DNA of 64,000 bases. Source: Thermoproteota archaeon. GTDB taxonomy: Archaea; Thermoproteota; EX4484-205; JAAOZP01. The translations under genes were made by a program, and so were the position numbers. Every line of letters begins with the position of its first letter. Positions within the stretch are counted from its first letter, which is position 1. Positions 8,554 through 62,857 of this stretch are shown here, one piece after another. The notes beneath the pieces are model-generated. The model saw only the letters and a program-made list of their open reading frames with translations. It was not told the DNA's origin and made no database searches. The stretch is from assembly GCA_038861395.1 (NCBI GenBank), contig JAWCDE010000003.1, positions 3,536-67,535 of the forward strand. Reading direction: 5' to 3'.

Positions 8554-9345
8554 ATGAACAATCCCCACCTAGTTAAAATGCTTGGCCTAATCTTGGCCGC
8601 TGGAAAGGGAACTAGGATGCGCCCCTATTCCAATGCAATAAACAAAGAAATGTCATTAATAGGAGAAAGCCCAGTTATAGAGTATAGTGTAAGGGCTCTT
8701 GCAAACGCGGGCGTGAAAAAGGTTTTCATAGTACTCGGGGAGGGGAAGTGGCAAGTACTGGAATATTTGAGGGATGGGAATAGGTTTAACATTTCTATTT
8801 CTTATCTTTATCAAGATATGGGTGAAAAAGGGGAGAACAAAGGCACTGCCAAAGCTATTCAAACAGCTGAAAACTGGATAGAAGAAGATTTTATAGCGAT
8901 CTACGGCGATTCGTTTTTCCATCCTTATGATTTCTTGAAGAGCGAAATCGAGTTCCACTTAAAGGAAGAGGCTGACGTAACCATGGGGGTTTACATGATG
9001 AGGGATCATAAGGATTACGGTGTTGTAGAAGTTAGTAACGATCGGGTTGTAAATATTCTTGAGAAAGCTGCTAAGGAAGATGTTGAGAAGGTTAGAGTAG
9101 ACGACATGTTCGCCGTCAACTCTGGTCCTATAATCTTTACAAAAGAAGTTTTCTACTATATAAAGAAGACGAAGGCTTCCCCTTCAGGAGAATACTGGAT
9201 AACGGATACAATAAAGCTCATGATTGAAGATGGAAAGAAGGTGGTTGCCTATAGGATACCTAAGGAAGTTTTCTGGAGGGACATTGGAAGAATGGAGCAT
9301 AGGATAGAAGCAGAAGCATATCTCTTAAAGAAAATTAACCTTTAA
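8554..9345 (+). CDS. sugar-1-phosphate nucleotidyltransferase (glucose-1-P thymidylyl/uridylyltransferase-like)
   Basis: LILAAGKGTRMRPYS (GxGTRxxP) nucleotidyltransferase signature. The start may be Met9 at 8578. Confidence 0.75.
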   Translation: MNNPHLVKMLGLILAAGKGTRMRPYSNAINKEMSLIGESPVIEYSVRALANAGVKKVFIVLGEGKWQVLEYLRDGNRFNISISYLYQDMGEKGENKGTAKAIQTAENWIEEDFIAIYGDSFFHPYDFLKSEIEFHLKEEADVTMGVYMMRDHKDYGVVEVSNDRVVNILEKAAKEDVEKVRVDDMFAVNSGPIIFTKEVFYYIKKTKASPSGEYWITDTIKLMIEDGKKVVAYRIPKEVFWRDIGRMEHRIEAEAYLLKKINL

Positions 9346-19746: not shown

Positions 19747-20603
19747 AATATTACTTAATAGAGCTTAGAGTTCAAGAATCATATAAAAACCTGCTAATAC
19801 TTTTAGCACCATTCTTCAGTAAGAAGCTTCTAGATCTTAATTACTATCAAAACCTCCTGCTGGGTTTTGCAGCACTCTTCTTAAACTCCAGCGCCTGTTA
19901 CATATTTAACGATATTAAAGATGCAGGCTTTGATGCCTTCCATCCTCGAAAGAAGAATCGGCCTATTGCAAGCGGCAAGATAAGGAAGTCTTCAGCATTA
20001 TTATTCTCTGTAATGCTTTTAGTATTTTCGTTATTAATCTCCTACTGGATAGGGACCAGTTTCTTGTTACTCTGCCTACTGTTATTTCTGAACTCGGCTG
20101 CATATTCTTTTCTCTTGAGAAACATAGTCTGGCTTGACCTTATCAGCATATCTTTAAACTATGTTTTCAGAACTTTAGCAGGATGCTATTTGGTCGATGT
20201 AGTTCTCTCACCTTGGTTATTAATGGGAGTTTTCTATATTTCTATGCTTCTTGCATTAGTTAAGAGAAGAGAGGAAATAATTATTCTAGACAGACCTGAG
20301 CTTCATCGGAAAACTCTTAAACACTACTCTATAAGCATCATAGATCAAGCTATCACAATACTCTCGACGCTCATATTAATATCCTACTCACTTTATACTC
20401 TTCACTCCCCATACTCTAATAATCTTTTACCATTCACGATTCCACTCGTAACTTTAATAATCCTAAAGTTTATATTTGTTTTGAAGAGCAGTAGAGGAAA
20501 TAATATGATTATAAGGAAGGTATTAACTGACAACATCATAGCAATAAGCTTATTTACATGGCTTGTTGTAACGACTTATTTAATATACTTCAACCAATGT
20601 TAA
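19737..20603 (+). CDS. UbiA-family prenyl-phosphate phosphoribosyltransferase-like protein (decaprenyl-phosphate phosphoribosyltransferase / DPPR synthase subgroup)
   Basis: YIFNDIKDAGFDAFHPRKKNRPIASGKI contains the ND-x2-D-x3-D plus HP-x-K-x2-RPIAsG pattern of DPPR synthases. The protein is 288 aa with about 8 TM helices and a KRREE segment after TM5, as in Rv3806c-type enzymes. Confidence 0.6.
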   Translation: MELKYYLIELRVQESYKNLLILLAPFFSKKLLDLNYYQNLLLGFAALFLNSSACYIFNDIKDAGFDAFHPRKKNRPIASGKIRKSSALLFSVMLLVFSLLISYWIGTSFLLLCLLLFLNSAAYSFLLRNIVWLDLISISLNYVFRTLAGCYLVDVVLSPWLLMGVFYISMLLALVKRREEIIILDRPELHRKTLKHYSISIIDQAITILSTLILISYSLYTLHSPYSNNLLPFTIPLVTLIILKFIFVLKSSRGNNMIIRKVLTDNIIAISLFTWLVVTTYLIYFNQC

Positions 20604-39794: not shown

Positions 39795-41081
39795 TTATGA
39801 AGCCTGTTCTCTTCCGCGAAGCTTCCGCCCTAATACTGTTCCCATAGCCAAGCCCGCCGCCAGAGAAACAGGAATCCCTATCATTGCTAACATCCTGTAT
39901 TGACTTGCTTCGCTCCCATATCTCTCAGCTTCATCCTTGTAACGCGATGCAGCTTCTTCAAGCCCTCTCAAATCCTCCAGGGCCTCATTAAACCTATTCA
40001 ATAGACTGCTCATGTTAGATTCCAATTGCGTAATATTGGCTCTCAATTGCCTATTCTCCTCCTCAAGCCGCCTTAGTTCGTTAATCATCTCCTCTAGTTG
40101 TTCATTAAGCTGCTCTTCCTCTTCGCCCACCAGCCTGAAAGCCAACGGCCTAGTGCTCTCAGCCCTAGCTAGTCTCGCAGTACCCGTGAAAACCGCTTTA
40201 AACAATAGCTCGCCACTAATGCTCATTCTTAAGTCGATCGTGAAACGACCCTCGCTGTCTGTAGTAGTGTTAGAAAGATGCAGCCAGGAAGAACCACTGT
40301 CCAAGCTGACGAATATCATTATCGTTGCTCTAATCTCAGGCGCAGGTCTAACACTACCACCCAACCTAACCTGCCTCGGCCCTGACGCCAGCGCGTAAAG
40401 GTCAACTGTAGGCCTCGTCTTAACGTAGAACTCAACCGTATTGCTTGTCGAAGACTTATACTCATTATTCCCAGCGAACTGAGCGTACGCCCTGTACAAC
40501 CCTAAAACATCAGTCGTGAACTCGTAGCGGAACCTCCCTTGAGAATCAGTATTAACCCTAGCTTGGAGAGTCGAGTCGTCAGGCTTTGTCACAACTATCG
40601 TGATTTCAACACTCATAGCCGGAGATATCGATCCCGTTAGGACCACCGGTTCGTTAACATACTCCTCTTTAGAAGCCTCTATCCTTAGACTCGTGGACCT
40701 CTTCTCCGGAGGCGGTGGAGAAGGCGTAGGCGTTGGCGGGGGCGCTGCCTTTAGATGCACATCTATCCTCATCGTTCCCTCTCCAGTTTTAGAAGCACTT
40801 CCGGAGTAACTGCCTTTAGACGCCTTCACGGTTATAGTTACAGGGATTGATGAAACGGTTAGAGTCACTGGACCATACTTACCGTCGTTCCCCGTGGAAG
40901 TGGAGGCAGAGGCTCCTCCACCAGAGATCGAAACGGAAGCACCTGCTGCAGGACTACCGTCAGGCATGTAGACATACCCCCATACAGCCACTGGAACCTG
41001 TGCTTTAACAATATTCGTGAGCGCAGGTGCAAGCATCCATAGGAGAATAACGCAAGCCAAAAGAATGGAGAGCTTCCTCAT
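39795..41081 (-). CDS. cell-surface protein: signal peptide, carboxypeptidase-regulatory-like beta-sandwich domains, Pro/Thr linker, C-terminal coiled coil and TM anchor
   Basis: VWGYVYMPDGSPAAGASVSISG (CarboxypepD_reg-like), APPPTPTPSPPPPEK, and a heptad-rich EEEEQLNEQLEEMINELRRLEEENRQLRANITQLESN followed by AMIGIPVSLAAGLAMGTVLG. The start overlaps the stop of the upstream C25 gene. Confidence 0.65.
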   Translation of the reverse strand: MRKLSILLACVILLWMLAPALTNIVKAQVPVAVWGYVYMPDGSPAAGASVSISGGGASASTSTGNDGKYGPVTLTVSSIPVTITVKASKGSYSGSASKTGEGTMRIDVHLKAAPPPTPTPSPPPPEKRSTSLRIEASKEEYVNEPVVLTGSISPAMSVEITIVVTKPDDSTLQARVNTDSQGRFRYEFTTDVLGLYRAYAQFAGNNEYKSSTSNTVEFYVKTRPTVDLYALASGPRQVRLGGSVRPAPEIRATIMIFVSLDSGSSWLHLSNTTTDSEGRFTIDLRMSISGELLFKAVFTGTARLARAESTRPLAFRLVGEEEEQLNEQLEEMINELRRLEEENRQLRANITQLESNMSSLLNRFNEALEDLRGLEEAASRYKDEAERYGSEASQYRMLAMIGIPVSLAAGLAMGTVLGRKLRGREQAS

Positions 41082-41084
41082 GTG

Positions 41085-44000
41085 TCACCACCCGGGAAAC
41101 TCCACGAGCCTGCGTGGGGAAGTCAGGTATACGAAGTATCCGAAACCCATCTCCATTGGAAAGTCGTCTGAAGGCGGGCTGACACCCGGAACATATCCCT
41201 TAAACTTTTGAGCAGTAGTATCCCAGCTAGCGATAAGAGTAGCCTCAGGCCCTATTGCCCTCGCAAGGCTACTGGCGGAGTATCCTGGCTCAGGATAGTA
41301 GATAAGAGAAATGAGGTTATACCTCCTCGAGAGCTCCCTGATCTCGAAGGGCCGCCCAAGCCACCATGATTCGAAGCCGCCTTCAGCAAAAGCCCTAACA
41401 TCGAGAAAATGCCAACCTAGCGAATGAGAGTATCCGTCTATTTCAATATGAACCGTCTCAACATCCTCGTCGTAAGCCCCATCAATGGGTGCAGGAATAT
41501 CAACCCAGTCTGAACCATCGATACGATACTGGACCATGACTATGTTTAGGCCTGCGTCGTTAGACACGGTGATGTTAACGCTTATAATGCCTTGGACAAT
41601 ATCCCTGTCCTCCACAAAGAGGCTGAAACCTGGTGCTGCCACAACCCTGAAAGTCGCATTCCTGTAAATGGGGACGTAGCCAGGTATGTCGGCCTCCGCC
41701 TCAATCTGGTAGTAGCCAACGGGATACGTGTCAAGTATATCGTAGAGCAAAGTGTAGTTACCATCACCAGCCACATCGTCCCCATGGGTCCCATCATCAT
41801 ACATCGTTAAGCCTGAGACCACTGTGCCATCAGGATAGTAGATGCTCGCCGTCACAGTAATCCCGGGGAGAGGATTGGTACCGTCGAAAAGGCTTGCAAC
41901 AGCCTTAACCGTATAGCCTGGGAGGTAGACTCCCCTGTCGGTGCTCACCTTGAGAACATAGGACGTAGTCAACCATTCGACAGCATTCTCAACCAGAGTG
42001 TTTCTATCGTTCTCGTAAAGATAGTGGAGCGGAAAAGCCACGTACACCACCCTGCCCCCGAAGCCCCAGTAGAGACCGTCGTAAACCACTACCGCAGAAT
42101 ATGGAGTACCCTGGTAGCGGGCGACCTCTTCACCGTTGTTCACAGGCTCAACACCGTCGGGGTAAGGAGGCATTGTTTCAAAGGAGAAAGTTGGAAGACT
42201 GTACACCACGGGGTGCTTGGCTATCGCCACTATCGTATTTTCATCAGCATCATCTACAAGCTGGTAAGCGTGGGCGACCCTCCGCATAAACTCATCTCTA
42301 TCATGATCCCACCCTATGTCCTCACCCTCCAACAGTAGTCTTCCACCGCTTTCGACGAATTGTATGAGGGTTTGCGCATCAACAGGGTCTACAGCCCACC
42401 TAAGGTATGTGCCTGTGTGCCATATAACCGCTTCTACATTCTCGTGTTGAAGAATCTCGAGAGGAGGACGACCATTCTCACTCTCTCTCCAAACAAACAC
42501 GTTGAAACCCATTGAGGTTAGAACGCTCTCAATCTCGCTAGGCCAAACTCCTTCATCCAAATAATAAGAACCATCGTCATCAACTACTAGGAGAATCGTG
42601 TTGGGCGAAAATTCCTGTAGAACCACGTTTTTCTCCATAACGACATGAGGATAGTAGAAAGCTACTCCGCCATAGAAGTCATCCTTAGAAGCTTCGATCA
42701 TGTAGGTTCCGTAAGGCAGGCCAACGAACTCATAGCACCCGTCGGTCTCAACCCCCTCATAGAGAAGCACCCCAGACGTGTAGTTGTAGAGTCTGATCAA
42801 AACGTCGGTAACAGCATGCCCATTTTCGTCTAAAGCGTAGCCGTAAAGCCTTGGAGTAGGCGGGGGAGGCGGAGGGCTTCCGGTACCTGTCAACGGTAGC
42901 ATCGGGTCTCCCAGGAGCGTACCATACTCAACCACGGTGTACCAGTCTAAGACCCATGACCTGCCGAATACACTCAAATAAACAATGATGGTATACGCAT
43001 GCATAAGACCTGGAGTGGGGACATAACCCTCGTCCTCCAGAGCCTTAAATAATGCTAGGAAGACCCAGTCTATCGCGCCGGCGAGACCCTCGGTTACATA
43101 GTACCCTCTATAACCATAGGCTACTTCAGCAGCCCCCAAGTAAGCTATTGCACCACCATCAGGGTGTATCATGAAGGCCTCGCTTATCGCAACATCCGTG
43201 TCTGCGAAGTCGTTGGTTAAACACGCCATCGTAGCCACAATAGGCGTGTTAAAGCCGTTTGTAAGCTGGTAGACGTCTGAATTAAGGAACCAACCTCCCT
43301 CCCCGAAATCCCATAGTCTTGTGTTACCGTGGCCTGCGAAGTTGACTATTCCGTAGCCATTATTAATCTCGTCTTTAACGTTAGTGGGGTTAAGGTTGCC
43401 AAGACCCTCGTACAGCTTCGTCCAAGAGAAGCTCGTTGGGAGCCAGTTTGCTTCCCAGTAGTCCTTCAGTATCTCGCCCTCTGGCCTTAGTCTATTTCCC
43501 AAAGTGACTGTACCCAGCAGGAGGATCCTTCTAAACCATGAGTTATCAGGATTATAGTTCATAAGCTTGTTAACTATCGCATTCGCCTCGCTTAATGTGC
43601 TTGCCGGCAGCCTACCGACTAGAATATCAGGATACCCGTCAACAACATCTTGCATCTCGCCGTAGACATGGTCGTTATCAGTGTCCCATGTGCCGTCTAA
43701 GTCAGCGTAGTAGAGGTCGCTCTCAATCCAAGGATTCTCCGCTAGGTCTTCAAACTCTGATGAATATACTCTCCTCGCAGGAACTTGGTCATCGTCGCCC
43801 AATATTATAACATACCAGGCACCGTAATTGTCTGCAGCGTCTTTCAGGAAGTTCCTTATTTTCTCAGGAGTATCGTAGCCATCGTAGTTTAAACTGATCC
43901 AGTCAACGGTACGTACCCACACGGTATACCCTTGCGAAGACTTCCAGCTTGCTAGAGTTTGAGCAGCTGTTTGGAGGGTTGTGGAGGTTATTATCACCAG

Positions 44001-44654
44001 AAAATCCTGTTGCAACGGTTCAACCTGATTGCTGAGATCCCTGTAATCCACCTTAATCTCCACCTTGGACGCGTAGGTCAAAGACCCTTTCTTCGGAACG
44101 TACTGGACTGGGAAGACCCTTACTATCACGTAGGTTACTCTTTCCCGAGTGGGAGGGTCTATGCCTTTCTTAACCTCGTATTCAAACATTTTCTCCGGAT
44201 ACGGTTTGTCAGACTCGTAGATGCTCGGATCCTCTTCGAACATTTCTACCTTAGGGCGTTCAGGCTTGGATGAGTCTAGTTTCACAGGCTTAGGGCCTGG
44301 GAGTAGCTTGTACTGTCCTTTGAGAGGCCTTGTTTCAATTTCGACTTTAACATTCCTCACCTCGCAGTTGTAGGGTAGTTTGAAAGTGTATACTTTGACT
44401 GGCACTATTGGTGCACCCGGTACTAGGTATAGTCTGGTGTCTGGCATTGAAACGGTGTAGTAATCCTTCACCATGCTTTTGCTTACTTTAGGCTGGTCGA
44501 ATTTTAAGACCGTGCCTTTGGTTAAGACTTCTTCGTCAGCGGGTTTGATGGAAATATACTCCCAAGGCGGGAGCGTATTCGATAATACGAGAACTACCAT
44601 AAGGGAGATGGTGAGCTGTTGCAAAATGTTTTCCAGAAGGGTCTTTTTTCCCAT
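41085..44654 (-). CDS. large secreted cysteine peptidase, family C25 (gingipain-like), with propeptide and multiple Ig/CarboxypepD_reg-like domains
   Basis: DFLVIITSTTLQTAAQTLASWKSSQGYTVWV...YVIILGDDDQVPARRVY...ILVGRLP...GIVNFAGHGNTRLW...IVATMACLTNDFA shows the C25 catalytic His (GHG) and Cys (ACL) in the expected order. RLYGYALDENGHAVTDVLIRLYNYTSG is CarboxypepD_reg-like. N-terminal signal anchor. Confidence 0.75.
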   Translation of the reverse strand: MGKKTLLENILQQLTISLMVVLVLSNTLPPWEYISIKPADEEVLTKGTVLKFDQPKVSKSMVKDYYTVSMPDTRLYLVPGAPIVPVKVYTFKLPYNCEVRNVKVEIETRPLKGQYKLLPGPKPVKLDSSKPERPKVEMFEEDPSIYESDKPYPEKMFEYEVKKGIDPPTRERVTYVIVRVFPVQYVPKKGSLTYASKVEIKVDYRDLSNQVEPLQQDFLVIITSTTLQTAAQTLASWKSSQGYTVWVRTVDWISLNYDGYDTPEKIRNFLKDAADNYGAWYVIILGDDDQVPARRVYSSEFEDLAENPWIESDLYYADLDGTWDTDNDHVYGEMQDVVDGYPDILVGRLPASTLSEANAIVNKLMNYNPDNSWFRRILLLGTVTLGNRLRPEGEILKDYWEANWLPTSFSWTKLYEGLGNLNPTNVKDEINNGYGIVNFAGHGNTRLWDFGEGGWFLNSDVYQLTNGFNTPIVATMACLTNDFADTDVAISEAFMIHPDGGAIAYLGAAEVAYGYRGYYVTEGLAGAIDWVFLALFKALEDEGYVPTPGLMHAYTIIVYLSVFGRSWVLDWYTVVEYGTLLGDPMLPLTGTGSPPPPPPTPRLYGYALDENGHAVTDVLIRLYNYTSGVLLYEGVETDGCYEFVGLPYGTYMIEASKDDFYGGVAFYYPHVVMEKNVVLQEFSPNTILLVVDDDGSYYLDEGVWPSEIESVLTSMGFNVFVWRESENGRPPLEILQHENVEAVIWHTGTYLRWAVDPVDAQTLIQFVESGGRLLLEGEDIGWDHDRDEFMRRVAHAYQLVDDADENTIVAIAKHPVVYSLPTFSFETMPPYPDGVEPVNNGEEVARYQGTPYSAVVVYDGLYWGFGGRVVYVAFPLHYLYENDRNTLVENAVEWLTTSYVLKVSTDRGVYLPGYTVKAVASLFDGTNPLPGITVTASIYYPDGTVVSGLTMYDDGTHGDDVAGDGNYTLLYDILDTYPVGYYQIEAEADIPGYVPIYRNATFRVVAAPGFSLFVEDRDIVQGIISVNITVSNDAGLNIVMVQYRIDGSDWVDIPAPIDGAYDEDVETVHIEIDGYSHSLGWHFLDVRAFAEGGFESWWLGRPFEIRELSRRYNLISLIYYPEPGYSASSLARAIGPEATLIASWDTTAQKFKGYVPGVSPPSDDFPMEMGFGYFVYLTSPRRLVEFPGW

Positions 44655-44917: not shown

Positions 44918-45427
44918 TTAATTCTCTTCTGGGATGGATTCGACTATTAGTCTTGACTTCCCTGCGGTTATCTTTTTACTTTGGAAGAATCCTAGCGGGG
45001 CTTCGATAGCGTACTTGAAGCTTTCATTCGGCGCGTAGAGCCTGTTTGGATCCGGGTCCATCCTCATTATCTCTATTATTCTCCCATCAGCCTTGATGAA
45101 CGCTATGTCTAGGCTTGCCTCAACATTACGCATGTGGAAAAACACGTATCCTTCCTCTGGAAATATGAAGAGAATAAGAGTTTTCTCTACTACGCTTCTA
45201 CTTATGTTTTGGAAGCCTGCTGCACGCTCATCAGGCTCGTCTGCAATCCTTACCTCAAGCTCCAGAATCTTATCCTCATCGTTAACAATTTTTATTTTAG
45301 CCGTCTCCATCTTTCGGAACTCCCTGGTAACCCGCTGGTTAAGTGTTGAGGATATTTGGACTAGAACCAGCACTATGGCGGAGATTAGAAATAAGATTAG
45401 TATAGCCATCTGGCGTTTAACGTTCAT
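44918..45427 (-). CDS. DUF192 (COG1430) domain protein with N-terminal signal anchor
   Basis: KIVNDEDKILELEVRIADEPDERAAGFQN...LILFIFPEEGYVFFHMRNVEASLDIAFIKADGRIIEI matches the DUF192 pattern. Confidence 0.6.
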   Translation of the reverse strand: MNVKRQMAILILFLISAIVLVLVQISSTLNQRVTREFRKMETAKIKIVNDEDKILELEVRIADEPDERAAGFQNISRSVVEKTLILFIFPEEGYVFFHMRNVEASLDIAFIKADGRIIEIMRMDPDPNRLYAPNESFKYAIEAPLGFFQSKKITAGKSRLIVESIPEEN

Positions 45428-46643: not shown

Positions 46644-47906
46644 CTAGCATAGAGGGTTAACGATTCTTCCCATGAACAAGATGCTCCCTGTCTCCTTTTC
46701 CTGAATTATGAAGAAGAAGGGGCGGTCTGCTCTAAATACCTTAGTTTCTGGTACTGCGGTTATCCCTATTATTACTGCAGTTGCGGCTGCCGCCTCTGTC
46801 CCCTTCTCGTCAACCTTAACGTATGCCTGATGAATAACTTCGCTGATAAACAGGTCTCTTCTGCCAGTCATCCCTGAGAAGTCTGCTGCTCCGCTGAACG
46901 CGGTAGGCATTCCAAGACTGCTTAAAGTTTTCTGCATAGAGTATTTGGTTTCAAGCTCGAATTTAGGCAGGCAGATCTCATCCAGCTTCTCCTCCCTCAT
47001 TTCAGCCTTATACTCGTCCAGCCTCTCCAGCGTTAGTGAGGATTCGAATGCTTCAAGATCCTTCGGCAATATTATTATCATCGACACGTTCTCCCCCTTG
47101 TAGGGCAACTCTATGATCTGCGCATCTCCCGTATCAGCGTAGTTGAATCTTATTGTTTCATTAGGATGCATGCGCATCATCTGAACCTTTACAGTCCTGT
47201 CAGGCTCTATCCAGAAATCCTCCTCGCTTGTGAGAGATTCGTCGAAAGCTATTTTCCAGTCTCCTTTGAAGTATATCGCGTTGGTTAAAACAAGCCTCGT
47301 GTACTCGTCTAGAGCCCCAGGAGGAATCAGATCTTTAATCTTGTGATTAGTCTGCTCCTCTATGAATGTGTTAATCGTTTGCCGCGCTTCCTCAGCCTTA
47401 TGGATAAAGTCTAAAAGTGCTGCCTTTCCACCGTAATACTCCTCAACAGTTTTCAAATAGTCTTCTAGAAATGGATAATCTTTCTGAACCCAAAGAGCAT
47501 TCCCAGTCCTCAACTCGTAATCCTTAGAGGCTTCATTAATACGGTTATATATTGCAGCGAAGTTCGGCCTCAGAATATGGCTCTCAGGGAAGCCGAATAC
47601 TGTTTTCATCTCATCCGCGGTTTCCCCCCTCGCACCCTCATAGGTCATTGCAAGAGCAGAGAAGAGGCTGTAGGGCGAATAGAAAACATTGCCAGTTTCA
47701 GTCTTAACAAGCTCAGAGTAAAGCTTGAAGGCGAATTGATTATTAGCCCTCGCAACCTCCTGAATACCCTGTGGCGTCCAACCTGTTTCATTTGCCTTCG
47801 GAGGTTGAGTAGGCGGATAGGGAAAGAGGAAGAACGCGGCTATAGCTGGCACAAGGGTAATCATGATAAGCGCTATTCCAATCATCCATAATCTCTTCTT
47901 ACTCAT
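46644..47906 (-). CDS. serpin (serine protease inhibitor) with N-terminal membrane anchor
   Basis: Hinge GTEAAAATAVIIGITA, RCL, then FRADRPFFFIIQEKETGSILFMGRIVNP (serpin C-terminal signature). I chose the start at MSKKRLWMIGIALIMITLVPAIAAFF rather than the longer ORF-track extension to 48026. Confidence 0.85.
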   Translation of the reverse strand: MSKKRLWMIGIALIMITLVPAIAAFFLFPYPPTQPPKANETGWTPQGIQEVARANNQFAFKLYSELVKTETGNVFYSPYSLFSALAMTYEGARGETADEMKTVFGFPESHILRPNFAAIYNRINEASKDYELRTGNALWVQKDYPFLEDYLKTVEEYYGGKAALLDFIHKAEEARQTINTFIEEQTNHKIKDLIPPGALDEYTRLVLTNAIYFKGDWKIAFDESLTSEEDFWIEPDRTVKVQMMRMHPNETIRFNYADTGDAQIIELPYKGENVSMIIILPKDLEAFESSLTLERLDEYKAEMREEKLDEICLPKFELETKYSMQKTLSSLGMPTAFSGAADFSGMTGRRDLFISEVIHQAYVKVDEKGTEAAAATAVIIGITAVPETKVFRADRPFFFIIQEKETGSILFMGRIVNPLC

Positions 47907-48249
47907 AGTGATTAAAAACCTACGGCAGATGCTAATTAAAGGTTGTGCTGTTCGACTTATTTTAAAGAAAATATTTTGATTAGAGAACGTGCTGTACAAT
48001 TTTTCGAACAGGAATGAAATAAGCAAAAAGACCCTAAGAATGAGATATTCTTTTACAAGCTTTATTCCTCCAAAACCTTCTTAAGCGATTCTACGTCTAA
48101 CCTTATCTTCTTAAGCCTATTAACAAACCTCTTTTTAGCTTCATCTAGGCTGATCAATTCATACTAATTCTCGAAAATCGCTAAAAGAACCTGTAGGCTA
48201 TCGGTAAATCAAGAAAGCTTCAAACTCCTAAATTTAGGTTTTTAGGATC

Positions 48250-51635: not shown

Positions 51636-51965
51636 ATGACCGAGATGCGTATACCGGTTAAGGTGAAGTATGCAGAAGACTTCGTGAGAATCTATGCGAC
51701 GGGCGCGATCGGGGGCTTTAACGGCTATGATTTCAGAATAGCATTCTTCAACGATATTGTGAACCATCCGGAAGGACCATCCCAGCCTCCGACTGTTACG
51801 AGGGAGATCAAGGTTGAGATAATTCTCTCGCCAGTAGCTTTAAAACAGCTCACAAGATGGTTAAACCAGCACCTGACTGAGCTTGAGAAAATAATAGGGG
51901 AGATCAAAGACCAGTATCCGCAGCAACCGGGTCGAAAGGAAACCCTATCAGGATACTATGTTTGA
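51636..51965 (+). CDS. hypothetical protein
   Basis: 109-aa ORF overlapping the next gene by 4 nt, with no secure motif. Confidence 0.4.
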   Translation: MTEMRIPVKVKYAEDFVRIYATGAIGGFNGYDFRIAFFNDIVNHPEGPSQPPTVTREIKVEIILSPVALKQLTRWLNQHLTELEKIIGEIKDQYPQQPGRKETLSGYYV

Positions 51966-53317
51966 CAATCAAAAAGTGTCGAATCTTGAAAGCAGTAAGC
52001 CGAGACGCTCCTAAGGTCGGCATCCTAGGCGGGGGACTCTCCGGTATAGCTTACGCTTACTTCTCCTCTAGAATGGGTTACGATGTGACTGTTCTTGAAA
52101 AGGAAAATGTTTTAGGAGGCTTGATGAGAAGCATCAATGAAGACGGCTTTACATTCGACATTGGAGGATCGCATGTTATCTTCTCTAAGGATGCTGAAGT
52201 CCTTGACTTAATGCTGAAGCTCTTAGGTGAGAACAAGGTTAGAAACAGGAGAAATACCGCGATATTATACAAGGGGCGGCTTGTCAAATATCCTTTTGAA
52301 AACGGCTTATCCGATCTTCCTTTAACAGAGAATGTTTCCTGCCTAATCCATTTTTTACTCGCAAGAATTAAGAAAGGGAAAAAGCATGGAAATCTTAAAG
52401 AGTTCTTCTATAACTCCTTTGGAAAAGCTATCTCTGAAAAATACCTGATACCTTATAATGAGAAAATCTGGAAAATGAAAGTGGAGGATATTTCTCTAGA
52501 TTTTGTTGGAAGACTTCCTAACCCTAAGATCATCGATGTTATCAAGGCTTCTCTCGGAATCGGCTCTGAGGGATATGTGCACCAGCTTTACTTCTACTAC
52601 CCGAGGAAAGGCGGCATACAGTATCTTGTAGAATCGTTAAGAGAGAAAACCATAGGAAAAATAGTGACCGGTTTTGAAGTTAAAAATGCAAAAAACGAGT
52701 CTGGGAAATGGATTGTTTCAAACGGTTCTAAAGAAATGTTTTTTGACCATGTTGTTTCAACCATACCTTTACACGATGCCGTGAAGATTTTCGATACGCC
52801 TCGAGAAATCAGTAGCAATATTAATCACTTAAAGTATAATTCTCTTATTACTGTCGCAATAGGCTTGAGCAAGCTGGAAAGCAAGAATTTGAGTTGGCTT
52901 TATATTCCGGATAGGGATGTGCATCCTCATAGAATCAGTTTCCCGTCTAACTTCAGCCCTGAAAACGCTCCTGAGGGAAAAGCCTCAATACTCGCCGAGA
53001 TAACCGTTAAACCTGATGACCCGCTTTTCAACAAGAATGGTGAGGAAATTGTCGACATTGTGGTTGAAGAATTGGATAAGCTTAAGATATTCTCTAGAGA
53101 AAATGTTGTTTATAGCCGCGTTTTTAAAATAAAGTATGCTTACCCGTTGCTGGATTCCTATTATCGGGAAAACATCGGTAGGATTAAATCATTCTTCAAC
53201 GGGATTGGCGTTAAACTAGTCGGCAGGTTTGCCGAGTTCAAATATATCAACATGGATGATGCAATTAGAAACGCTGCAACACATTTAAACATATTAAACT
53301 TAAGAGGATATGAATAG
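51962..53317 (+). CDS. FAD-dependent oxidoreductase, UDP-galactopyranose mutase (Glf)-like
   Basis: FAD-binding VGILGGGLSGIAYAYF...VLEKENVLGG, FDIGGSHVIF, and the C-terminal KLVGRFAEFKYINMDDAI resembling the UDP-galactopyranose mutase GRLA.YKY.NMD tail. Confidence 0.55.
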   Translation: MTIKKCRILKAVSRDAPKVGILGGGLSGIAYAYFSSRMGYDVTVLEKENVLGGLMRSINEDGFTFDIGGSHVIFSKDAEVLDLMLKLLGENKVRNRRNTAILYKGRLVKYPFENGLSDLPLTENVSCLIHFLLARIKKGKKHGNLKEFFYNSFGKAISEKYLIPYNEKIWKMKVEDISLDFVGRLPNPKIIDVIKASLGIGSEGYVHQLYFYYPRKGGIQYLVESLREKTIGKIVTGFEVKNAKNESGKWIVSNGSKEMFFDHVVSTIPLHDAVKIFDTPREISSNINHLKYNSLITVAIGLSKLESKNLSWLYIPDRDVHPHRISFPSNFSPENAPEGKASILAEITVKPDDPLFNKNGEEIVDIVVEELDKLKIFSRENVVYSRVFKIKYAYPLLDSYYRENIGRIKSFFNGIGVKLVGRFAEFKYINMDDAIRNAATHLNILNLRGYE

Positions 53318-53373: not shown

Positions 53374-54207
53374 ATGGATAAAAACAGATTTGTTCCAAGA
53401 TTAGATTTAAAGCCCTTAGACCTCTCTCGTATGATAATGGACCCGAATTCTAACACGTATTTTATTTCCGTAACACTAGTTAATAAAAGCGGCGTATTAG
53501 CTTCTTTTCTCGACGTGCTTAAGAATTATAATTTCAACATAATTGGAATCATAGGTGAAGCCGTTACAAGAAAAGAAGAAATGGAGGTCTCTATTTTCTT
53601 AGAAACCCCTGTAAAAATGGATCGGACGGAGCTTGAAATAATTATTAAAAAGGAGACGAATAGAATGAAAGTAGTGAAGGATGTAAGAATCTTCGACCAT
53701 TTTCTAGAAGGGTTTGATGCAGATGTTTACCATTTCCCCCTCACTGTAGAAAAGGCGAGGGTGGCGATTTTTCCATTAACCGTCCTAGAGGGCTTTATAA
53801 AGACGGTGAGAAATGCTTTCGACAAGCCGATTTCTCAGACAATCCTGTGGTATCAAGGTAGAGAAGTTGGAAGAACAATATTCGAATCTTATGAAAGGGT
53901 TTTTGGATTGAAAGGAGCCCGCGCCCTCGAATTCTTAAGAGTAAGGGCTCTGCTTTTCGGATGGGCATACATGGAAACATCTAAATTCGAAGAGTTGAAG
54001 AAGACTGCGACAATAAGGCTTTTCGACAACTGGGAATGCGAGTTGTTTAAGGGCAGTAAAGAACCTCAGAATCACTTTATGAGGGGCATTTTAGTTGGGT
54101 TCCTCACTGGTCTCTTTGGAGTTGAGACGGAGGCTGTTGAAACCAAATGTATAGCAAAAGGAGATGCTTTTTGTGAATTTGTAGTAAGGGAGAAGGTGAG
54201 GCACTAA
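53374..54207 (+). CDS. V4R-domain protein with N-terminal ACT-like domain
   Basis: C-terminus CIAKGDAFCEFVVREK has the V4R signature. It is a paralog of the C-terminal domain of the 6559-7224 product. Confidence 0.55.
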   Translation: MDKNRFVPRLDLKPLDLSRMIMDPNSNTYFISVTLVNKSGVLASFLDVLKNYNFNIIGIIGEAVTRKEEMEVSIFLETPVKMDRTELEIIIKKETNRMKVVKDVRIFDHFLEGFDADVYHFPLTVEKARVAIFPLTVLEGFIKTVRNAFDKPISQTILWYQGREVGRTIFESYERVFGLKGARALEFLRVRALLFGWAYMETSKFEELKKTATIRLFDNWECELFKGSKEPQNHFMRGILVGFLTGLFGVETEAVETKCIAKGDAFCEFVVREKVRH

Positions 54208-59193: not shown

Positions 59194-59913
59194 TTGGATG
59201 CTAAAAAAATATCTGTAGTCATCCCAACATTCAATGAAGAAAAGTATGTGGAAAGACTACTCGTCTCACTCTGCCAGCAGACAATACCTAGAGAAGATTA
59301 CGAAATAATAATTGTAGACGGGGGGAGTATTGATGGAACTGTTGAAATATGCAGAAAATATGCTGATAAGATAGTCATGCAAGAAACACCGACTGTGGGC
59401 GGTGCTAGGAATGATGGTGTTAAACACGCTGATGCGGAGCTTATTTTCACAACGGATGCTGACTGTATAGTTGCACCAAACATCCTTGAAAGGATTATTA
59501 GAATCTTCGATTCTCATCCCGAAGTCGTTATGGTTTACGGGATTGTAACACCATTGGAGAAAAGATTCAGATATGCATTTCTACTAGAGCTCAACAATGC
59601 TTTCGTCAAGATTCTCTACAGATTAAGGATATACTTGAGTGTGGGCTCGAGCATAGCATTTAGGAGGAAACATTTCAAATGGGTTAGGGGCTTTCCAACG
59701 GTTGGAGCAGGCGACGATTATGGCTTCTCTTTCCGTATGAGGAGGGTAGGCGAAGTAATGCTGGACGAAGGCTTAAGAGTATACTTCTCTATGAGGAGGT
59801 ATGAAAAATACGGTTTTGCAAGAAGCTTCTACGAGTGGTTATACAACGTGTTCAGCGAGTTGTTGAAGAGAAGAATACCGGCCGAAAAAATATATCATAG
59901 AAAGACGTATTAA
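59194..59913 (+). CDS. glycosyltransferase family 2 (dolichyl-phosphate sugar transferase-like)
   Basis: ISVVIPTFNEE, IIIVDGGSIDGT and TTDADCIV (DxD). TTG start. Confidence 0.8.
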   Translation: MDAKKISVVIPTFNEEKYVERLLVSLCQQTIPREDYEIIIVDGGSIDGTVEICRKYADKIVMQETPTVGGARNDGVKHADAELIFTTDADCIVAPNILERIIRIFDSHPEVVMVYGIVTPLEKRFRYAFLLELNNAFVKILYRLRIYLSVGSSIAFRRKHFKWVRGFPTVGAGDDYGFSFRMRRVGEVMLDEGLRVYFSMRRYEKYGFARSFYEWLYNVFSELLKRRIPAEKIYHRKTY

Positions 59914-60383: not shown

Positions 60384-61364
60384 TTGAAAAACGGGTTGAG
60401 CGTAATCCTTGGAATAGACATTGGAGCGACGAATACTAGGGTTGCAGTTGCAGATTTAAATGGAAGCATTCTCTTGAAGCATAGCGAGAAAACTGTTAGA
60501 GAATCCGGAATAGGAGTAGTGAATCAGGTGATCAGGATAAGCGATGCTATTCTAAGCTCACTCAGGCTCCGGAGGGAGGATGTTAAAAGTATTGGTGTAG
60601 GCTCGATAGGGCCGCTTGATTTGAAAAAAGGGATGATAGTTAATCCTCCTAATCTTAAAGTAGGTATAATACCAATAGTCGAAGAGATTGGAAAATATTT
60701 CAACGTTCCCGTTAGGCTGTTGAACGATTGCGTTGCAGCAGTCCTAGGTGAAAAAAGATTTGGAGCCGGGAGGAATTTGGAGAACATAGTCTACATCACT
60801 ATAAGTACAGGGATAGGATGTGGAGCGATTGTAGACGGGCACCTCCTCCTAGGTAAGGATGGTAATGCGCACGAGATAGGACATACAGTAGTTGATAAAG
60901 ACGGTTTGCTTACATGCGGTTGCGGAAAGCGAGGACATTGGGAAGCATATTGCAGTGGAAGAGGTATTGTAAACTATTCTAAGGTTCTCCTAGGAGAATG
61001 GGGCATAAAGTTCGATAATTGTTCCCTAAGAAAATACTCTCAGAGCGATGTTTCTAAATTAACCTCTGAAATGCTTTTTAAAGCAGCTAAGGAAGGAGAC
61101 GAGATTGCATTAAAAATCATAGATAAAGTTGGGTTGCTCAATGCAATTGGTTTCGCCAATGCTATAGAGGTTTATGATCCGGAGCTCATAACAGTTGGAG
61201 GGTCAGTGGCTTTTTACAATAGCGAGCTCATACTTAAACCGGTTAGAGAAAAAGTTTCAGAATACGCTATGAATAGACTACCCGAGATAGTTATAACGCC
61301 TCTAGGAGAAGACGTAGTACTCTACGGTGCATTGGCTGCCGCAATAGAAGCCTTTTCCAACTAG
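60384..61364 (+). CDS. ROK-family sugar kinase (glucokinase-like)
   Basis: LGIDIGATNTRVAV (ATP-binding), GIGCGAIVDG, and the zinc motif HTVVDKDGLLTCGCGKRGHWEAYCSG. It has no N-terminal HTH, so it is a kinase rather than a repressor. Confidence 0.85.
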   Translation: MKNGLSVILGIDIGATNTRVAVADLNGSILLKHSEKTVRESGIGVVNQVIRISDAILSSLRLRREDVKSIGVGSIGPLDLKKGMIVNPPNLKVGIIPIVEEIGKYFNVPVRLLNDCVAAVLGEKRFGAGRNLENIVYITISTGIGCGAIVDGHLLLGKDGNAHEIGHTVVDKDGLLTCGCGKRGHWEAYCSGRGIVNYSKVLLGEWGIKFDNCSLRKYSQSDVSKLTSEMLFKAAKEGDEIALKIIDKVGLLNAIGFANAIEVYDPELITVGGSVAFYNSELILKPVREKVSEYAMNRLPEIVITPLGEDVVLYGALAAAIEAFSN

Positions 61365-62857
61365 CGTTTCATAATTCTAAGAGATTTTAAAGTAGATTTT
61401 AAAAATCCTCTAAACTTGTTGTCGATAGCAAGCAGCACAGTAAAATAAACAATGATGCCAAGCAGGATTACTGGCATCAGCGAAACCATAACAATAAATA
61501 TCTGCCCACTTTTAGCTGATTCAGGATATAGAATACAGAGCGTAATAGACATCACTATTCCAGATATTAAAAATCTGAAGATTCTAGAAACATTGAAATG
61601 AAACTTGATGAGCTTTTTAGATGCTTTGAGATAATATGATGTAATAACAATATTTATTAATAAGAAGCAAACCATTGATACCAGAGATATTAGAACGTGC
61701 GAGCTGCCGATATCATGGAGAATTTTAACAGTTAAAGACAGTAATATAATGTAAAAAAGAGAACCCGCAACCTCGATAAGAGGTATCTTCATGAGATATG
61801 ATTCGGCAATCTTTCTCAGAGCGATTTCTTCGTCAGCGTCAACTTTTTCAATGCCTTGGATAACTGCAGAAAAAATTCTTTTAAACACAATAATTGCATA
61901 ACATAGTGAAGCCGCTCTAAGAACATCGTATAATTGTCCGTATTCTCTCCTTAATAAGTATAACATAGGCTCGGCAAGAACAAGCTGTCCAAGCACCATG
62001 GGTATAAGGAACATCAAAACAAGCTCTACAGAATCCTCAATGTCTTTACCTGTTCCACCTGAGAGAAGTTTCGGATAAAGACCTATTGCTAATGCTTCAG
62101 AGAAGCATATCACCATGGCAAAAGTATTTGCTGCTTTGACGTAAGCTACTGGCAGGATAGATCCGGTTATAAATGTTAAAACTAGGACGTCCAACATTTT
62201 TATAAATCCCGGTGCTCTTGAAATTAACGGTACCAAACTCATTTTAAACCATCTGCGTAAATCCTCTAATGAAAAACTCCCCTTTAAGTATTCGGAGAGA
62301 TTAAGAGAATAGTATAGCAATTGTATAAGCAACGCCAAGTCTACCGAAAGAACTGCGCCAAGAAGCAGAACTCTCATATAGCCCATTAATATCGCTCCAA
62401 TAATTACCTTAGAGAATTCGAAAACAAGGATTCCGTAACCAATTACCTGCGGCTTCATCCCTTGGAAAACAGATTCGAGGCTTGAGGTATGGTACATGAT
62501 AACGATCCAAAGCATGAGTGAAAATATCACAGGAATGTCAATGAACACTTGTGAAGAGAAAAGCGGAGAAAGGATTAGAAATAACAATGTTGAAATGATG
62601 GACATAGTGCTATTGAAGAATACTCCAGATTTTACAACCTGTCTTCCTCTTCTCAAATCCCTTACAAGCCAGTAATTTACTATGCACGAAGGAATTAAGA
62701 AATAGGAAATAAGATCGGAGTAGAACTGCCAAGTTCCGAAAGCTTCCTCGCTGAGCCTCCTAGTAACTATTATTGTGAATAATAATCCTGTTACAACTGA
62801 CAATATTTTGGATGCAAAGTTAACCAGCCCCGAGTATCTAAGCCGGATATCTTTCAA
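61361..62857 (-). CDS. oligosaccharide flippase, MOP/Wzx-like polysaccharide biosynthesis protein
   Basis: 498 aa with about 14 TM helices, an N-terminal Wzx-type basic loop, and 4-nt overlap with the ROK kinase stop. Confidence 0.6.
   Translation of the reverse strand: MKDIRLRYSGLVNFASKILSVVTGLLFTIIVTRRLSEEAFGTWQFYSDLISYFLIPSCIVNYWLVRDLRRGRQVVKSGVFFNSTMSIISTLLFLILSPLFSSQVFIDIPVIFSLMLWIVIMYHTSSLESVFQGMKPQVIGYGILVFEFSKVIIGAILMGYMRVLLLGAVLSVDLALLIQLLYYSLNLSEYLKGSFSLEDLRRWFKMSLVPLISRAPGFIKMLDVLVLTFITGSILPVAYVKAANTFAMVICFSEALAIGLYPKLLSGGTGKDIEDSVELVLMFLIPMVLGQLVLAEPMLYLLRREYGQLYDVLRAASLCYAIIVFKRIFSAVIQGIEKVDADEEIALRKIAESYLMKIPLIEVAGSLFYIILLSLTVKILHDIGSSHVLISLVSMVCFLLINIVITSYYLKASKKLIKFHFNVSRIFRFLISGIVMSITLCILYPESAKSGQIFIVMVSLMPVILLGIIVYFTVLLAIDNKFRGFLKSTLKSLRIMKR

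Follow-up and report, generated by a model that had tools for sequence, protein, structure and literature searches.

A eukaryotic-class UDP-galactopyranose mutase homolog in Brockarchaeota and its association with a small GT2 glycosyltransferase across archaea

The eukaryotic class of UDP-galactopyranose mutase, or UGM, serves as a target for drugs in fungi, kinetoplastids, and nematodes. Chemical evidence also places galactofuranose in certain archaeal lipids and glycoproteins, including the galactofuranose lipids of Methanospirillum, and no archaeal enzyme assigned to it was found in the searchable literature. Searches for archaeal UGMs, PRK07208, galactofuranose in Thermococcus or Methanospirillum, and the Q107A/N207A substitutions returned no relevant characterized homolog. 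The closest described systems are the eukaryotic-type enzymes TcUGM (Trypanosoma cruzi, PDB 4dsg) and AfUGM (Aspergillus fumigatus, PDB 3ute/3ukh), to which the protein described here is ~23% identical (23% over the full-length alignment with TcUGM). It differs from them in being archaeal, linked to a small GT2 glycosyltransferase, and known from sequence alone; at 443 aa it is also shorter than eukaryotic UGMs (480–510 aa) and lacks their long insertions. Bacterial-type UGMs (E. coli K-12 Glf and the enzymes of K. pneumoniae and D. radiodurans, PDB 3hdq, along with C. jejuni UNGM, PDB 4mo2) are ~21% identical, with sequence matches confined to the N-terminal ~175 residues. Compared with these, the archaeal protein is ~75 residues longer and has eukaryote-type domain elaborations.

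The gene lies in a 64,000-nucleotide stretch of DNA, here called the window, and its host belongs to the Brockarchaeota. An initial annotation made from the letters alone placed a Glf-like UGM homolog in an open reading frame that is present exactly as described (Table 1). The true coding sequence probably starts at a TTG further in, giving 51986-53317, because the protein in the metagenome-assembled genome (P0001) has 443 aa and is 100% identical to the product of the frame, the closest relative (locus L008) has its start at the position matching TTG 51986, and this start leaves a 20-nt gap behind the stop of the upstream gene. Residue numbers follow the 451-aa frame; Tyr165, for example, is Tyr157 in the 443-aa numbering. 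Rfam and tRNA scans across the window gave no matches.

Table 1. Features of the flavoprotein locus, in window positions (aa numbers follow the 451-aa frame)
Feature	Positions	Strand	Basis or remark
NTP_transferase genes (two)	1918-2904; 8554-9345		42-50 kb from flavoprotein gene
UbiA, DPPR-synthase-like	19737-20603		real homolog; 32 kb from flavoprotein gene
DUF3467 gene, immediately upstream of flavoprotein gene, co-directional	51636-51965	+	PF11950 4.7e-12
UGM-like flavoprotein frame	51962-53317	+	maximal ORF, 451 aa, TTG start, TAG stop
GxGxxG dinucleotide-binding motif, FAD Rossmann fold (GGGLSG, aa 23-28)	52028-52045	+	Pfam NAD_binding_8 6.8e-14
Histidine loop GGSHVIF (aa 68-74)	52163-52183	+	alignment; residue roles PMC4192007, PMC3322874
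YPFENG (aa 110-115)	52289-52306	+	Tyr110 aligned to AfUGM Tyr104; Glu113 at AfUGM Gln107 position
PYNEKIW (aa 164-170) and mobile loop I with Arg184	52451-52525	+	alignment to AfUGM/TcUGM
Loop II motif EGYVHQ (aa 203-208)	52568-52585	+	alignment and family residue counts
WLYIPDRDVHPHR (aa 312-324)	52895-52933	+	alignment to AfUGM
C-terminal active-site elements: Tyr394 and GRFAEFKYINMDDAI tail (aa 421-435)	53135-53266	+	alignment; Glf tail comparison
Small soluble GT2, 239 aa	59194-59913	+	Pfam Glycos_transf_2 8.9e-32; no TM segment
Block directly after GT2, same order in L008	60014-62857		53-69% identity to L008
Single-TM protein, 115 aa	60014-60361	+	part of L008-conserved block
ROK glucokinase-like kinase	60384-61364	+	part of L008-conserved block
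Polytopic membrane protein, 498 aa, ~14 TM-like segments	61361-62857	-	part of L008-conserved block

Assignment of the predicted product as a UGM homolog of the eukaryotic (TcUGM/AfUGM) structural class is supported: significant full-length similarity and the three-domain UGM fold are present, and the best solved relatives are UGMs. The description as Glf-like holds for UGM homology but not for the bacterial type, since the product scores below cutoff with the bacterial models Pfam GLF PF03275 (15.2 bits versus 26.3) and NCBIfam TIGR00031 (59.3 bits versus 303.75). This failure was rejected as an argument against a UGM, because authentic TcUGM and AfUGM give no GLF match and also fail the bacterial-type curated models; it excludes the bacterial subclass only. 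The top-scoring curated models for both the archaeal protein (237.3 bits) and TcUGM (123–128 bits) are the NCBIfam "hypothetical protein" models PRK07208. Protein and models belong to a common superfamily of uncharacterized Amino_oxidase-fold proteins, the models describing prokaryotic homologs of eukaryotic-type UGM, and every PRK07208 sub-model cutoff is missed (best PRK07208.1-4, 237.3 bits versus 389). The PRK07208 models bear no functional name, so membership would say nothing about function.

All three motifs on which the initial annotation drew, GxGxxG, GGSHVIF, and GRFAEFKYINMDDAI, are present. The last does resemble bacterial UGM, with E. coli K-12 Glf carrying GRLAEYKYYDMHQVI in the matching position, but it does not end the protein, which runs on for 16 residues. 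Within the histidine loop, His71 aligns to TcUGM His62 and AfUGM His63 and is kept in 80 of 81 family members, while the V/I-I-F behind it is also conserved and Phe74 aligns to AfUGM Phe66. Further along, Tyr165 (invariant across a 25-member alignment), Asn166, and Trp170 align to AfUGM Tyr162, Asn163, and Trp167, and Trp312, Tyr314, and Arg324 align to AfUGM Trp315, Tyr317, and the essential Arg327. Arg184 on mobile loop I corresponds to TcUGM Arg176 and AfUGM Arg182; the two catalytic arginine counterparts, Arg184 and Arg324, each occur in 79/81 members. Tyr394 aligns to TcUGM Tyr395 (AfUGM Tyr419), and Arg422, Tyr428, and Asn430 align to TcUGM Arg423, Tyr429, and Asn433 (AfUGM Arg447, Tyr453, and Asn457). 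The predicted diphosphate- and sugar-pocket set (Tyr314, Tyr394, Arg422, Tyr428, and Asn430) is found, residue by residue, in 80/81 members.

Differences from TcUGM and AfUGM are also conserved. The histidine loop, which in UGMs lies over flavin N5, reads GGSH rather than GGH, with one inserted residue (Ser70); Gln107 is replaced by Glu, Pro206-Asn207 by His-Gln, and His68 by Lys or Arg. In AfUGM, Tyr104 stacks on the uracil and Gln107 hydrogen-bonds to it, and on UGM loop II Asn201/207 touches the galactose C3/C4 hydroxyls, AfUGM Asn207 contacting the C4-OH (PMC3322874). Here the counterpart of Tyr104 is conserved, Glu113 replaces Gln107 in 80/81 members, and Gln208 takes the TcUGM Asn201/AfUGM Asn207 position in 79/81, preceded by His207 rather than Pro206. 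The Asn-to-Gln exchange is a conservative amide-to-amide swap, one methylene longer. Glu113 and His207 co-vary, and the Glu/His-Gln signature is specific to the clade; in the distant prokaryotic relatives P0235, P0247, and P0253 these positions show the eukaryotic Gln/x-Asn signature.

In many archaeal lineages the homologous flavoprotein gene has a small GT2 gene directly downstream. Strict orthologs of this GT2 occur at 28 of 84 loci, always co-directional with the flavoprotein gene and in 26 cases at position +1 or +2; gene linkage and fusions are both observed. The GT2 in the window, 5.9 kb downstream, is 47.5% identical over 240 aa to the GT2 that directly follows the flavoprotein homolog of locus L046. 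It is the ortholog of the conserved partner and a candidate furanosyltransferase, which bears out the link between the two genes that had been proposed. Alignments and gene order indicate that the family has the complete catalytic machinery of eukaryotic-type UGMs and that a specific small GT2 is inherited along with it.

Other neighbors named in the initial annotation (the ROK kinase, two NTP_transferase genes, and UbiA) exist as well, but the roles suggested for several neighbors lack support. UbiA is unlinked to the flavoprotein gene at the distance given in Table 1 and a functional connection with it is unsupported, as is the relevance of the still more remote nucleotidyltransferases, and the presumed Wzx-like flippase is a polytopic membrane protein only, with no Pfam, NCBIfam, or PDB match. 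The block conserved with L008 could possibly be functionally associated with the mutase. Apart from the GT2, the two nucleotidyltransferases, and a distant GT4 (4957-6096), nothing in the window matched partner-cluster members by BLAST, and at E<1e-5 there was no GalE-type epimerase, Polysacc_synt flippase, or LPG_synthase_TM/PAP2 partner. No canonical Glf or WbbI-like galactofuranosyltransferase was found in the window or in 87 loci.

The product is probably an FAD-dependent mutase of the eukaryotic UGM class that interconverts the pyranose and furanose forms of a nucleotide sugar, acting with a co-inherited GT2 that uses its product. The chemistry, substrate, acceptor, and GT2 role that we infer would be as follows. 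By analogy with TcUGM and AfUGM, N5 of the reduced flavin would attack the anomeric carbon and expel the nucleoside diphosphate, which Arg324, Tyr314, Tyr394, and Tyr428 would hold while Arg184 and Arg422 positioned the sugar and loop I. In the resulting flavin-iminium adduct the sugar ring would be open; it would reclose as a five-membered furanose and be rejoined to the nucleotide. The likeliest conversion is UDP-galactopyranose to UDP-galactofuranose, a tentative choice that we rate a little below even. The ~240-aa GT2 would then transfer the furanose onto a lipid- or dolichol-linked cell-surface glycan.

The initial annotation had taken the substrate to be UDP-galactose, and the alignments do not require this, given that the uracil-reading and galactose-C4-contacting positions are both substituted family-wide (80/81 and 79/81 members). 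The same ring contraction could act on another substrate, with a different base (a GDP-, CDP-, or dTDP-sugar) and/or another hexose or pentose (GalNAc, fucose, arabinose, or a 6-deoxyhexose), a possibility that we hold less likely and that would yield a furanose so far undescribed from archaea. It overlaps in mechanism with the preferred reading, the substrate being the only difference. Clade-specific Glu/His-Gln alongside relatives that keep Gln/x-Asn is what paralogous specificities would be expected to produce, and the absence of a detectable GalE-type epimerase from the window and the dTDP-sugar (Rml-type) genes within the T. celer and Marinimicrobia clusters point the same way. However, UDP-galactose is also the substrate of bacterial UGMs, in which Phe stands where AfUGM has Asn207 (PMC3322874), so the choice of sugar is not set by this residue, and a Glu in place of the Gln could also accept N3-H of the uracil. 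The Glu and His positions lie on helix eta3 and loop II, which pack together upon closure (PMC3322874); with the co-variation, this suggests that the two residues may compensate for each other structurally instead of switching specificity. A nucleotidyltransferase and an NAD-dependent epimerase adjoin the flavoprotein gene at 12–14 loci, which fits a route from Glc-1-P through UDP-Glc and UDP-Gal to UDP-Galf.

Readings outside mutase chemistry fare worse. A true redox flavin oxidoreductase of glycan or glycolipid synthesis, retaining a UGM-like nucleotide-sugar pocket after loss of the mutase reaction, is improbable. Such an enzyme might oxidize a lipid-linked intermediate, or else a sugar or nucleotide sugar. 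The GGSH insertion falls in the loop that governs flavin N5 geometry in UGMs, the family is only ~23% identical to characterized UGMs and its members are so far sequences only, and a glycan cluster would suit a tailoring oxidoreductase equally well. Against this, the full catalytic constellation of the nonredox mutase is kept, both essential arginines and the His included, and so are the residues linked in AfUGM to NAD(P)H binding for flavin reduction (Arg91, Ser93 as Thr, Tyr104, Tyr317, Phe66, and Ile65); we know of no sugar oxidase on a UGM-like scaffold. Protoporphyrinogen/coproporphyrinogen oxidase (HemY-type; TIGR00562; PDB 3i6d, 2ivd) shares the FAD/Amino_oxidase fold class, and its name is the one that databases most often give to family members, with JGI, NCBI, and UniRef applying it to many; the Brockarchaeota gene is likewise labeled a heme-pathway oxidase. 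We regard this assignment as very unlikely to be correct. TIGR00562 scores 72 bits against a cutoff of 97.85, with its best-scoring stretch covering only aa 18-157, and the profile match to its structures (E 4e-13) is >30 orders of magnitude worse than that to UGMs (1e-46). The residues that the family conserves are those binding diphosphate and sugar in UGMs, a set without counterpart requirement in protoporphyrinogen oxidase, and the neighbors across homologous loci are glycosyltransferases, without heme genes. Use of the protoporphyrin-dependent heme pathway is not known from many host lineages, among them Methanomicrobiales and Thermococcales. The assignment to UGM was made from profile E-values together with tables of signature residues; on the profile scores, the active-site residues, and the gene context we reject protoporphyrinogen oxidase and phytoene desaturase, in agreement with the initial annotation.

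The family comprises >1,000 clusters at 50% identity, mostly archaeal, and is near-universal in the Methanomicrobiales, with members also in Thermococcus, ANME-1, Bathyarchaeia, DPANN, and Asgard lineages. In a check for the family in Methanospirillum, the best 120 matches listed (down to ~62% identity) came from other Methanomicrobiales only. If the mutase function is confirmed, the widespread annotations "protoporphyrinogen oxidase" and "FAD-dependent oxidoreductase" would need correction, because proteins under these labels carry the UGM catalytic residues and an inherited GT2. A mutase and a furanosyltransferase would form a testable two-gene module for archaeal furanosides, in groups that include the cultivable Thermococcus and methanogens, and prokaryotic relatives would be at hand for tracing the origin of the "eukaryotic" UGM class. 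It is conceivable, though rather doubtful, that the clade marked by Glu113, His207-Gln208, and GGSH is a distinct, mostly archaeal mutase class with a substrate other than UDP-galactose, which with its dedicated GT2 would attach a furanose, or draw on a nucleotide carrier, new to archaeal surface glycans or glycolipids. On that proposal the clade, Asgard members included, would be a close prokaryotic relative of the eukaryotic UGMs and bear on their origin. The pairing of the flavoprotein gene with the DUF3467 gene is conserved among Brockarchaeota loci only and is possibly just lineage synteny.

The flavoprotein gene at issue probably encodes a flavin-dependent nucleotide-sugar pyranose/furanose mutase of the eukaryotic UDP-galactopyranose mutase (UGM) class. 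Its 451-aa ORF, which gives the residue numbering used here, is present as the initial annotation described it, with a TTG start and a TAG stop. A Thermoproteota/Brockarchaeota MAG protein 100% identical to it is annotated at 443 aa, and the closest relative, at homologue locus L008 (82% identity), begins at the position matching the second TTG, 51986, which lies 20 nt past the stop codon of the gene upstream. The true coding sequence is thus probably 51986-53317. The motifs first noticed were all found, namely GGGLSG (aa 23-28), GGSHVIF (aa 68-74) and the GRFAEFKYINMDDAI tail (aa 421-435), but the protein does not end at the tail as claimed, and 16 further residues follow. The likeness of the tail to UGMs is genuine, since E. 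coli K-12 Glf, taken from the annotated genome, carries GRLAEYKYYDMHQVI in the equivalent place.

Domain models leave the protein unnamed. Pfam recognizes only generic Amino_oxidase and NAD_binding_8 domains, with the bacterial UGM domain GLF at 15 bits, under its 26.3-bit cutoff. Both the UGM model TIGR00031 (59 vs a cutoff of 304) and the protoporphyrinogen oxidase (PPO) model TIGR00562 (72 vs 98) are failed, and the top NCBIfam models are unnamed PRK07208 "hypothetical protein" equivalogs (237 bits, cutoff 389). Failure of the curated UGM models was discarded as an argument against the eukaryotic-type class, because the authentic Trypanosoma cruzi (TcUGM) and Aspergillus fumigatus (AfUGM) enzymes lack a GLF match too. 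When these controls were rebuilt from printed alignments (TcUGM residues 11-439, AfUGM 13-457) and scanned, both matched Amino_oxidase and NAD_binding_8, neither matched Pfam GLF, and the top NCBIfam models of TcUGM were the same PRK07208 sub-models. The curated "UGM" models thus cover the bacterial subclass only.

Comparison with solved structures points clearly to the eukaryotic enzymes. A single-sequence search matched TcUGM at 2.9e-32 and AfUGM at 2.4e-21, with PPOs at 7e-9 or worse and bacterial UGMs at 1.7e-8 or worse. With a 25-member family profile the two eukaryotic UGMs reached 8.5e-47 and 8.4e-45, respectively, over essentially the whole length, and the top PPO only 4.3e-13. An AlphaFold model from the 25-member alignment was of good quality (pLDDT 84.4, pTM 0.86), and in Foldseek eukaryotic UGMs ranked first (TM 0.81-0.83). 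PPOs were near, at 0.78, so the fold by itself discriminates only weakly between UGM and PPO, and the sequence profile is decisive.

For the active site, TcUGM and AfUGM were aligned with 81 family members drawn from 85 loci. The TcUGM active-site set comprises Gly61, His62, Val63, Arg176, Asn201, Tyr317, Arg327, Tyr395, Arg423, Tyr429 and Asn433 (PMC4192007). In AfUGM, the uracil is stacked by Tyr104 and hydrogen bonded by Gln107, the ribose is bound by Asn163 and the diphosphate by Tyr162, Tyr317, Tyr419 and Tyr453; the critical arginines are Arg182 and Arg327, Asn207 approaches the C4-OH of galactose to 3.5 A, and Asn457 touches the C3 and C4 hydroxyls (PMC3322874). Within the family, Trp170 is kept in 81/81 members, His71, Tyr314, Tyr394, Arg422, Tyr428 and Asn430 in 80/81, and Arg184 and Arg324 in 79/81; Val/Ile72, Phe74, Arg97, Tyr110 and Asn166 are also conserved. 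The core His/Arg/Tyr/Arg/Tyr set is invariant even in more distant representatives from the exhaustive search described below.

Other positions set the family apart. The histidine loop reads GGSH family-wide where eukaryotic UGMs have GGH, Gln107 of AfUGM is replaced by Glu113 in 80/81 members, and Pro206-Asn207 becomes His207-Gln208 family-wide (Gln in 79/81). The Glu/His-Gln signature holds down to about 33% identity. Below that, some prokaryotic proteins (P0235, P0247 and P0253) instead resemble the eukaryotic enzymes, with GGH, Gln and x-Asn; because the substitutions are swapped jointly, Glu and His-Gln co-vary and mark a clade. Specificity for the nucleotide, the sugar or both may be altered in this clade. 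However, bacterial UGMs with Phe at the Asn207 position still use UDP-Gal (PMC3322874), so the substitutions alone do not exclude this substrate. Alternatively, the changes may be structural, with Glu and His compensating for each other through a contact between helix eta3 and loop II, two elements that pack against each other on closure of the UGM active site (PMC3322874). Within the mutase assignment, UDP-galactopyranose is the single most likely substrate, if a tentative one, and some other NDP-sugar, a less likely choice, is a live alternative. The protein appears UGM-like on every catalytic criterion examined. It should not be filed as a verified UGM, because two substrate-contact features and the histidine loop differ from the eukaryotic class and its function is a prediction.

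The family is large. A scan of species-representative genomes gave at least 555 loci. Archaea make up most of the best 80 (Brockarchaeota, Bathyarchaeia, Methanomicrobia, ANME-1, Methanoperedens, Aenigm- and Micrarchaeota, Thermoplasmata, Hadarchaeota and Asgard), with a few bacteria among them. Exhaustive HMMER over 1.84 billion cluster representatives found 1,017 proteins at E<=1e-30 and 3,826 at E<=1e-10, and the family is near-universal in Methanomicrobiales. Databases name its members only "FAD-dependent oxidoreductase," "NAD(P)/FAD-dependent oxidoreductase," "protoporphyrinogen oxidase," "Amine oxidase domain-containing protein" or "hypothetical protein," and a literature search found no paper on them. 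The protein is best regarded as a widely misannotated, clade-level variation on a known kind of enzyme, new at that level and not categorically so. It makes archaeal furanoside biosynthesis directly testable.

Features of the window, with coordinates where available
Feature	Coordinates	Strand	Remarks
Nucleotidyltransferase	1918-2904		
GT4	4957-6096		
Nucleotidyltransferase	8554-9345		
Glycoside hydrolase/permease fusion	11937-17294	-	1,785 aa
Membrane protein	17398-19746	+	782 aa; about 12 TM-like segments
DPPR-synthase-like UbiA	19737-20603		
Peptidase_C25-related ORF	41085-44654	-	1,189 aa
DUF192	44918-45427	-	
Serpin	46644-48026	-	
GFO/IDH/MocA oxidoreductase			upstream of mutase-like gene
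Xylose-isomerase-like TIM-barrel protein			upstream of mutase-like gene
M54 archaemetzincin			upstream of mutase-like gene
DUF3467	51636-51965	+	109 aa; abuts mutase-like gene, co-directional, 20 nt from likely start
Mutase-like ORF	51962-53317	+	451 aa
ACT+V4R protein	53374-54207	+	directly downstream; 82% identity in L008
Sugar ABC importer			four genes, downstream
Small GT2	59194-59913		5,876 bp downstream
Single-TM protein			115 aa; after GT2
ROK glucokinase-like kinase			after GT2
Polytopic membrane protein			498 aa; after GT2

In the window, the mutase-like gene lies outside any glycan operon. The small GT2, 47.5% identical to the GT2 directly adjoining the homologue in L046, is the sole such ORF present. 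L008 has the same order (M54, DUF3467, FAD gene, ACT/V4R, then GT2, small membrane protein, ROK and polytopic protein) around a different pair of transporter genes, so the linkage of mutase-like gene and GT2 is kept in this sublineage and the spacer alone varies. Brockarchaeota further removed (about 70% identity) retain DUF3467 and GFO/IDH/MocA, with DUF6259 and DUF362 genes downstream and no GT2 found near the mutase-like gene. The DUF3467 pairing (L004, L008, L009, L011-L013 and L016; 82-92% identical) is absent from lineages other than Brockarchaeota. The ACT+V4R protein weakly resembles the C-terminal part of the redox regulator MsvR and may act as a regulator that senses a small molecule.

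Glycan genes are common neighbors elsewhere. ORFs were called up to 6 kb either side of the homologue at 85 loci, clustered and identified by Pfam. The commonest neighbor, at 50/83 loci, is a small GT2 (about 240 aa; adjacent in 26, co-directional in 43), followed by GT4 of about 374 aa (38 loci), NAD-dependent epimerase (14), sugar-1-phosphate nucleotidyltransferase (12) and Polysacc_synt flippase (11). Strict orthologues of the window GT2 (at least 35% identity, at least 200 aa aligned, length 200-290 aa) occur at 28 loci, all co-directional and 26 of them one or two genes downstream, with a median identity of about 45%, on par with the divergence of the flavoprotein. The mutase-like enzyme would supply this co-inherited GT2. 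Fusions of NTP_transferase to the FAD domain (P0132) and of the FAD domain to GT2 (P0152) support the glycan-gene link, each being a single metagenomic representative in which a gene-calling artefact is possible. Another metagenomic representative, P0241 (1,551 aa), appears to join a UGM-like domain to a second NAD_binding_8 region and DUF707.

In Thermococcus celer, a Polysacc_synt flippase and an RmlABCD-like set precede the mutase-like gene, which sits between a WsaF_C-type GT4 and further GT2/GT4/DUF2206 genes, a layout reminiscent of the E. coli O16 cluster rfbBDAC-rfbX-glf-wbbH-wbbI. The Methanothermococcus order is flippase, GT2, GT4, FAD gene, nucleotidyltransferase, NAD-epimerase, GT2 and DUF2206, and glycosyltransferase-rich surroundings also occur in a Halobacteriota MAG, a Marinimicrobia MAG and a 416-kb JGI contig. 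A bacterial-type Glf or WbbI-like gene was found neither in the window nor at any homologue locus. In ANME-1 and some Methanomicrobia, the module also takes in genes for LPG_synthase_TM (flippase-like), a PAP2 phosphatase and a small export protein, an arrangement that suggests a unit for making and flipping a membrane glycolipid. Loci L029, L035, L044, L046 and L054 of these lineages share the FAD gene, the small GT2 and in most cases GT4; the LPG_synthase_TM, PAP2 and Sm_multidrug_ex genes come next on the opposite strand.

The wider picture proposed initially, in which the window holds both furanose-donor routes of arabinogalactan, holds as a homology statement and not as a joint system, since the UbiA gene is 32 kb from the mutase-like gene with nothing connecting them. 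UbiA itself is a real homologue of decaprenyl-phosphate phosphoribosyltransferase: NCBIfam PRK12324.1-2 scores 192 bits (cutoff 234), and the top PDB match is the M. tuberculosis enzyme (8j8j, 3.8e-23, vs 2e-4 for DGGGP synthase). Its start overlaps by 10 nt the 782-aa ORF, also on the + strand, for which Pfam, NCBIfam and PDB gave no match. Together the two genes resemble a polyprenyl-phosphate-pentose donor synthase and a possible GT-C-type transferase, a combination that would be unusual for an archaeon. The two nucleotidyltransferases are likewise real, as is the GT4, and all lie 42-50 kb from the mutase-like gene. The suggested Wzx-like flippase is without sequence support, and a search of the window for a GalE-type epimerase came up empty.

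No rRNA or tRNA was found across the window. The serpin and DUF192 genes are syntenic with the mutase-like locus across Brockarchaeota (L010-L013 and L015); in L004 and L013 the serpin seems to be broken into three short ORFs, which may reflect a pseudogene or an assembly error. GC rises to about 0.50 at 40001-44000 (about 0.40 elsewhere), over the 1,189-aa ORF, a relative of a Peptidase_C25-domain protein in L004 and L013. The 1,785-aa ORF is an unusual fusion, with an N-terminal glycoside-hydrolase-family-2/beta-galactosidase sugar-binding region and a C-terminal MacB-like periplasmic core and FtsX permease.
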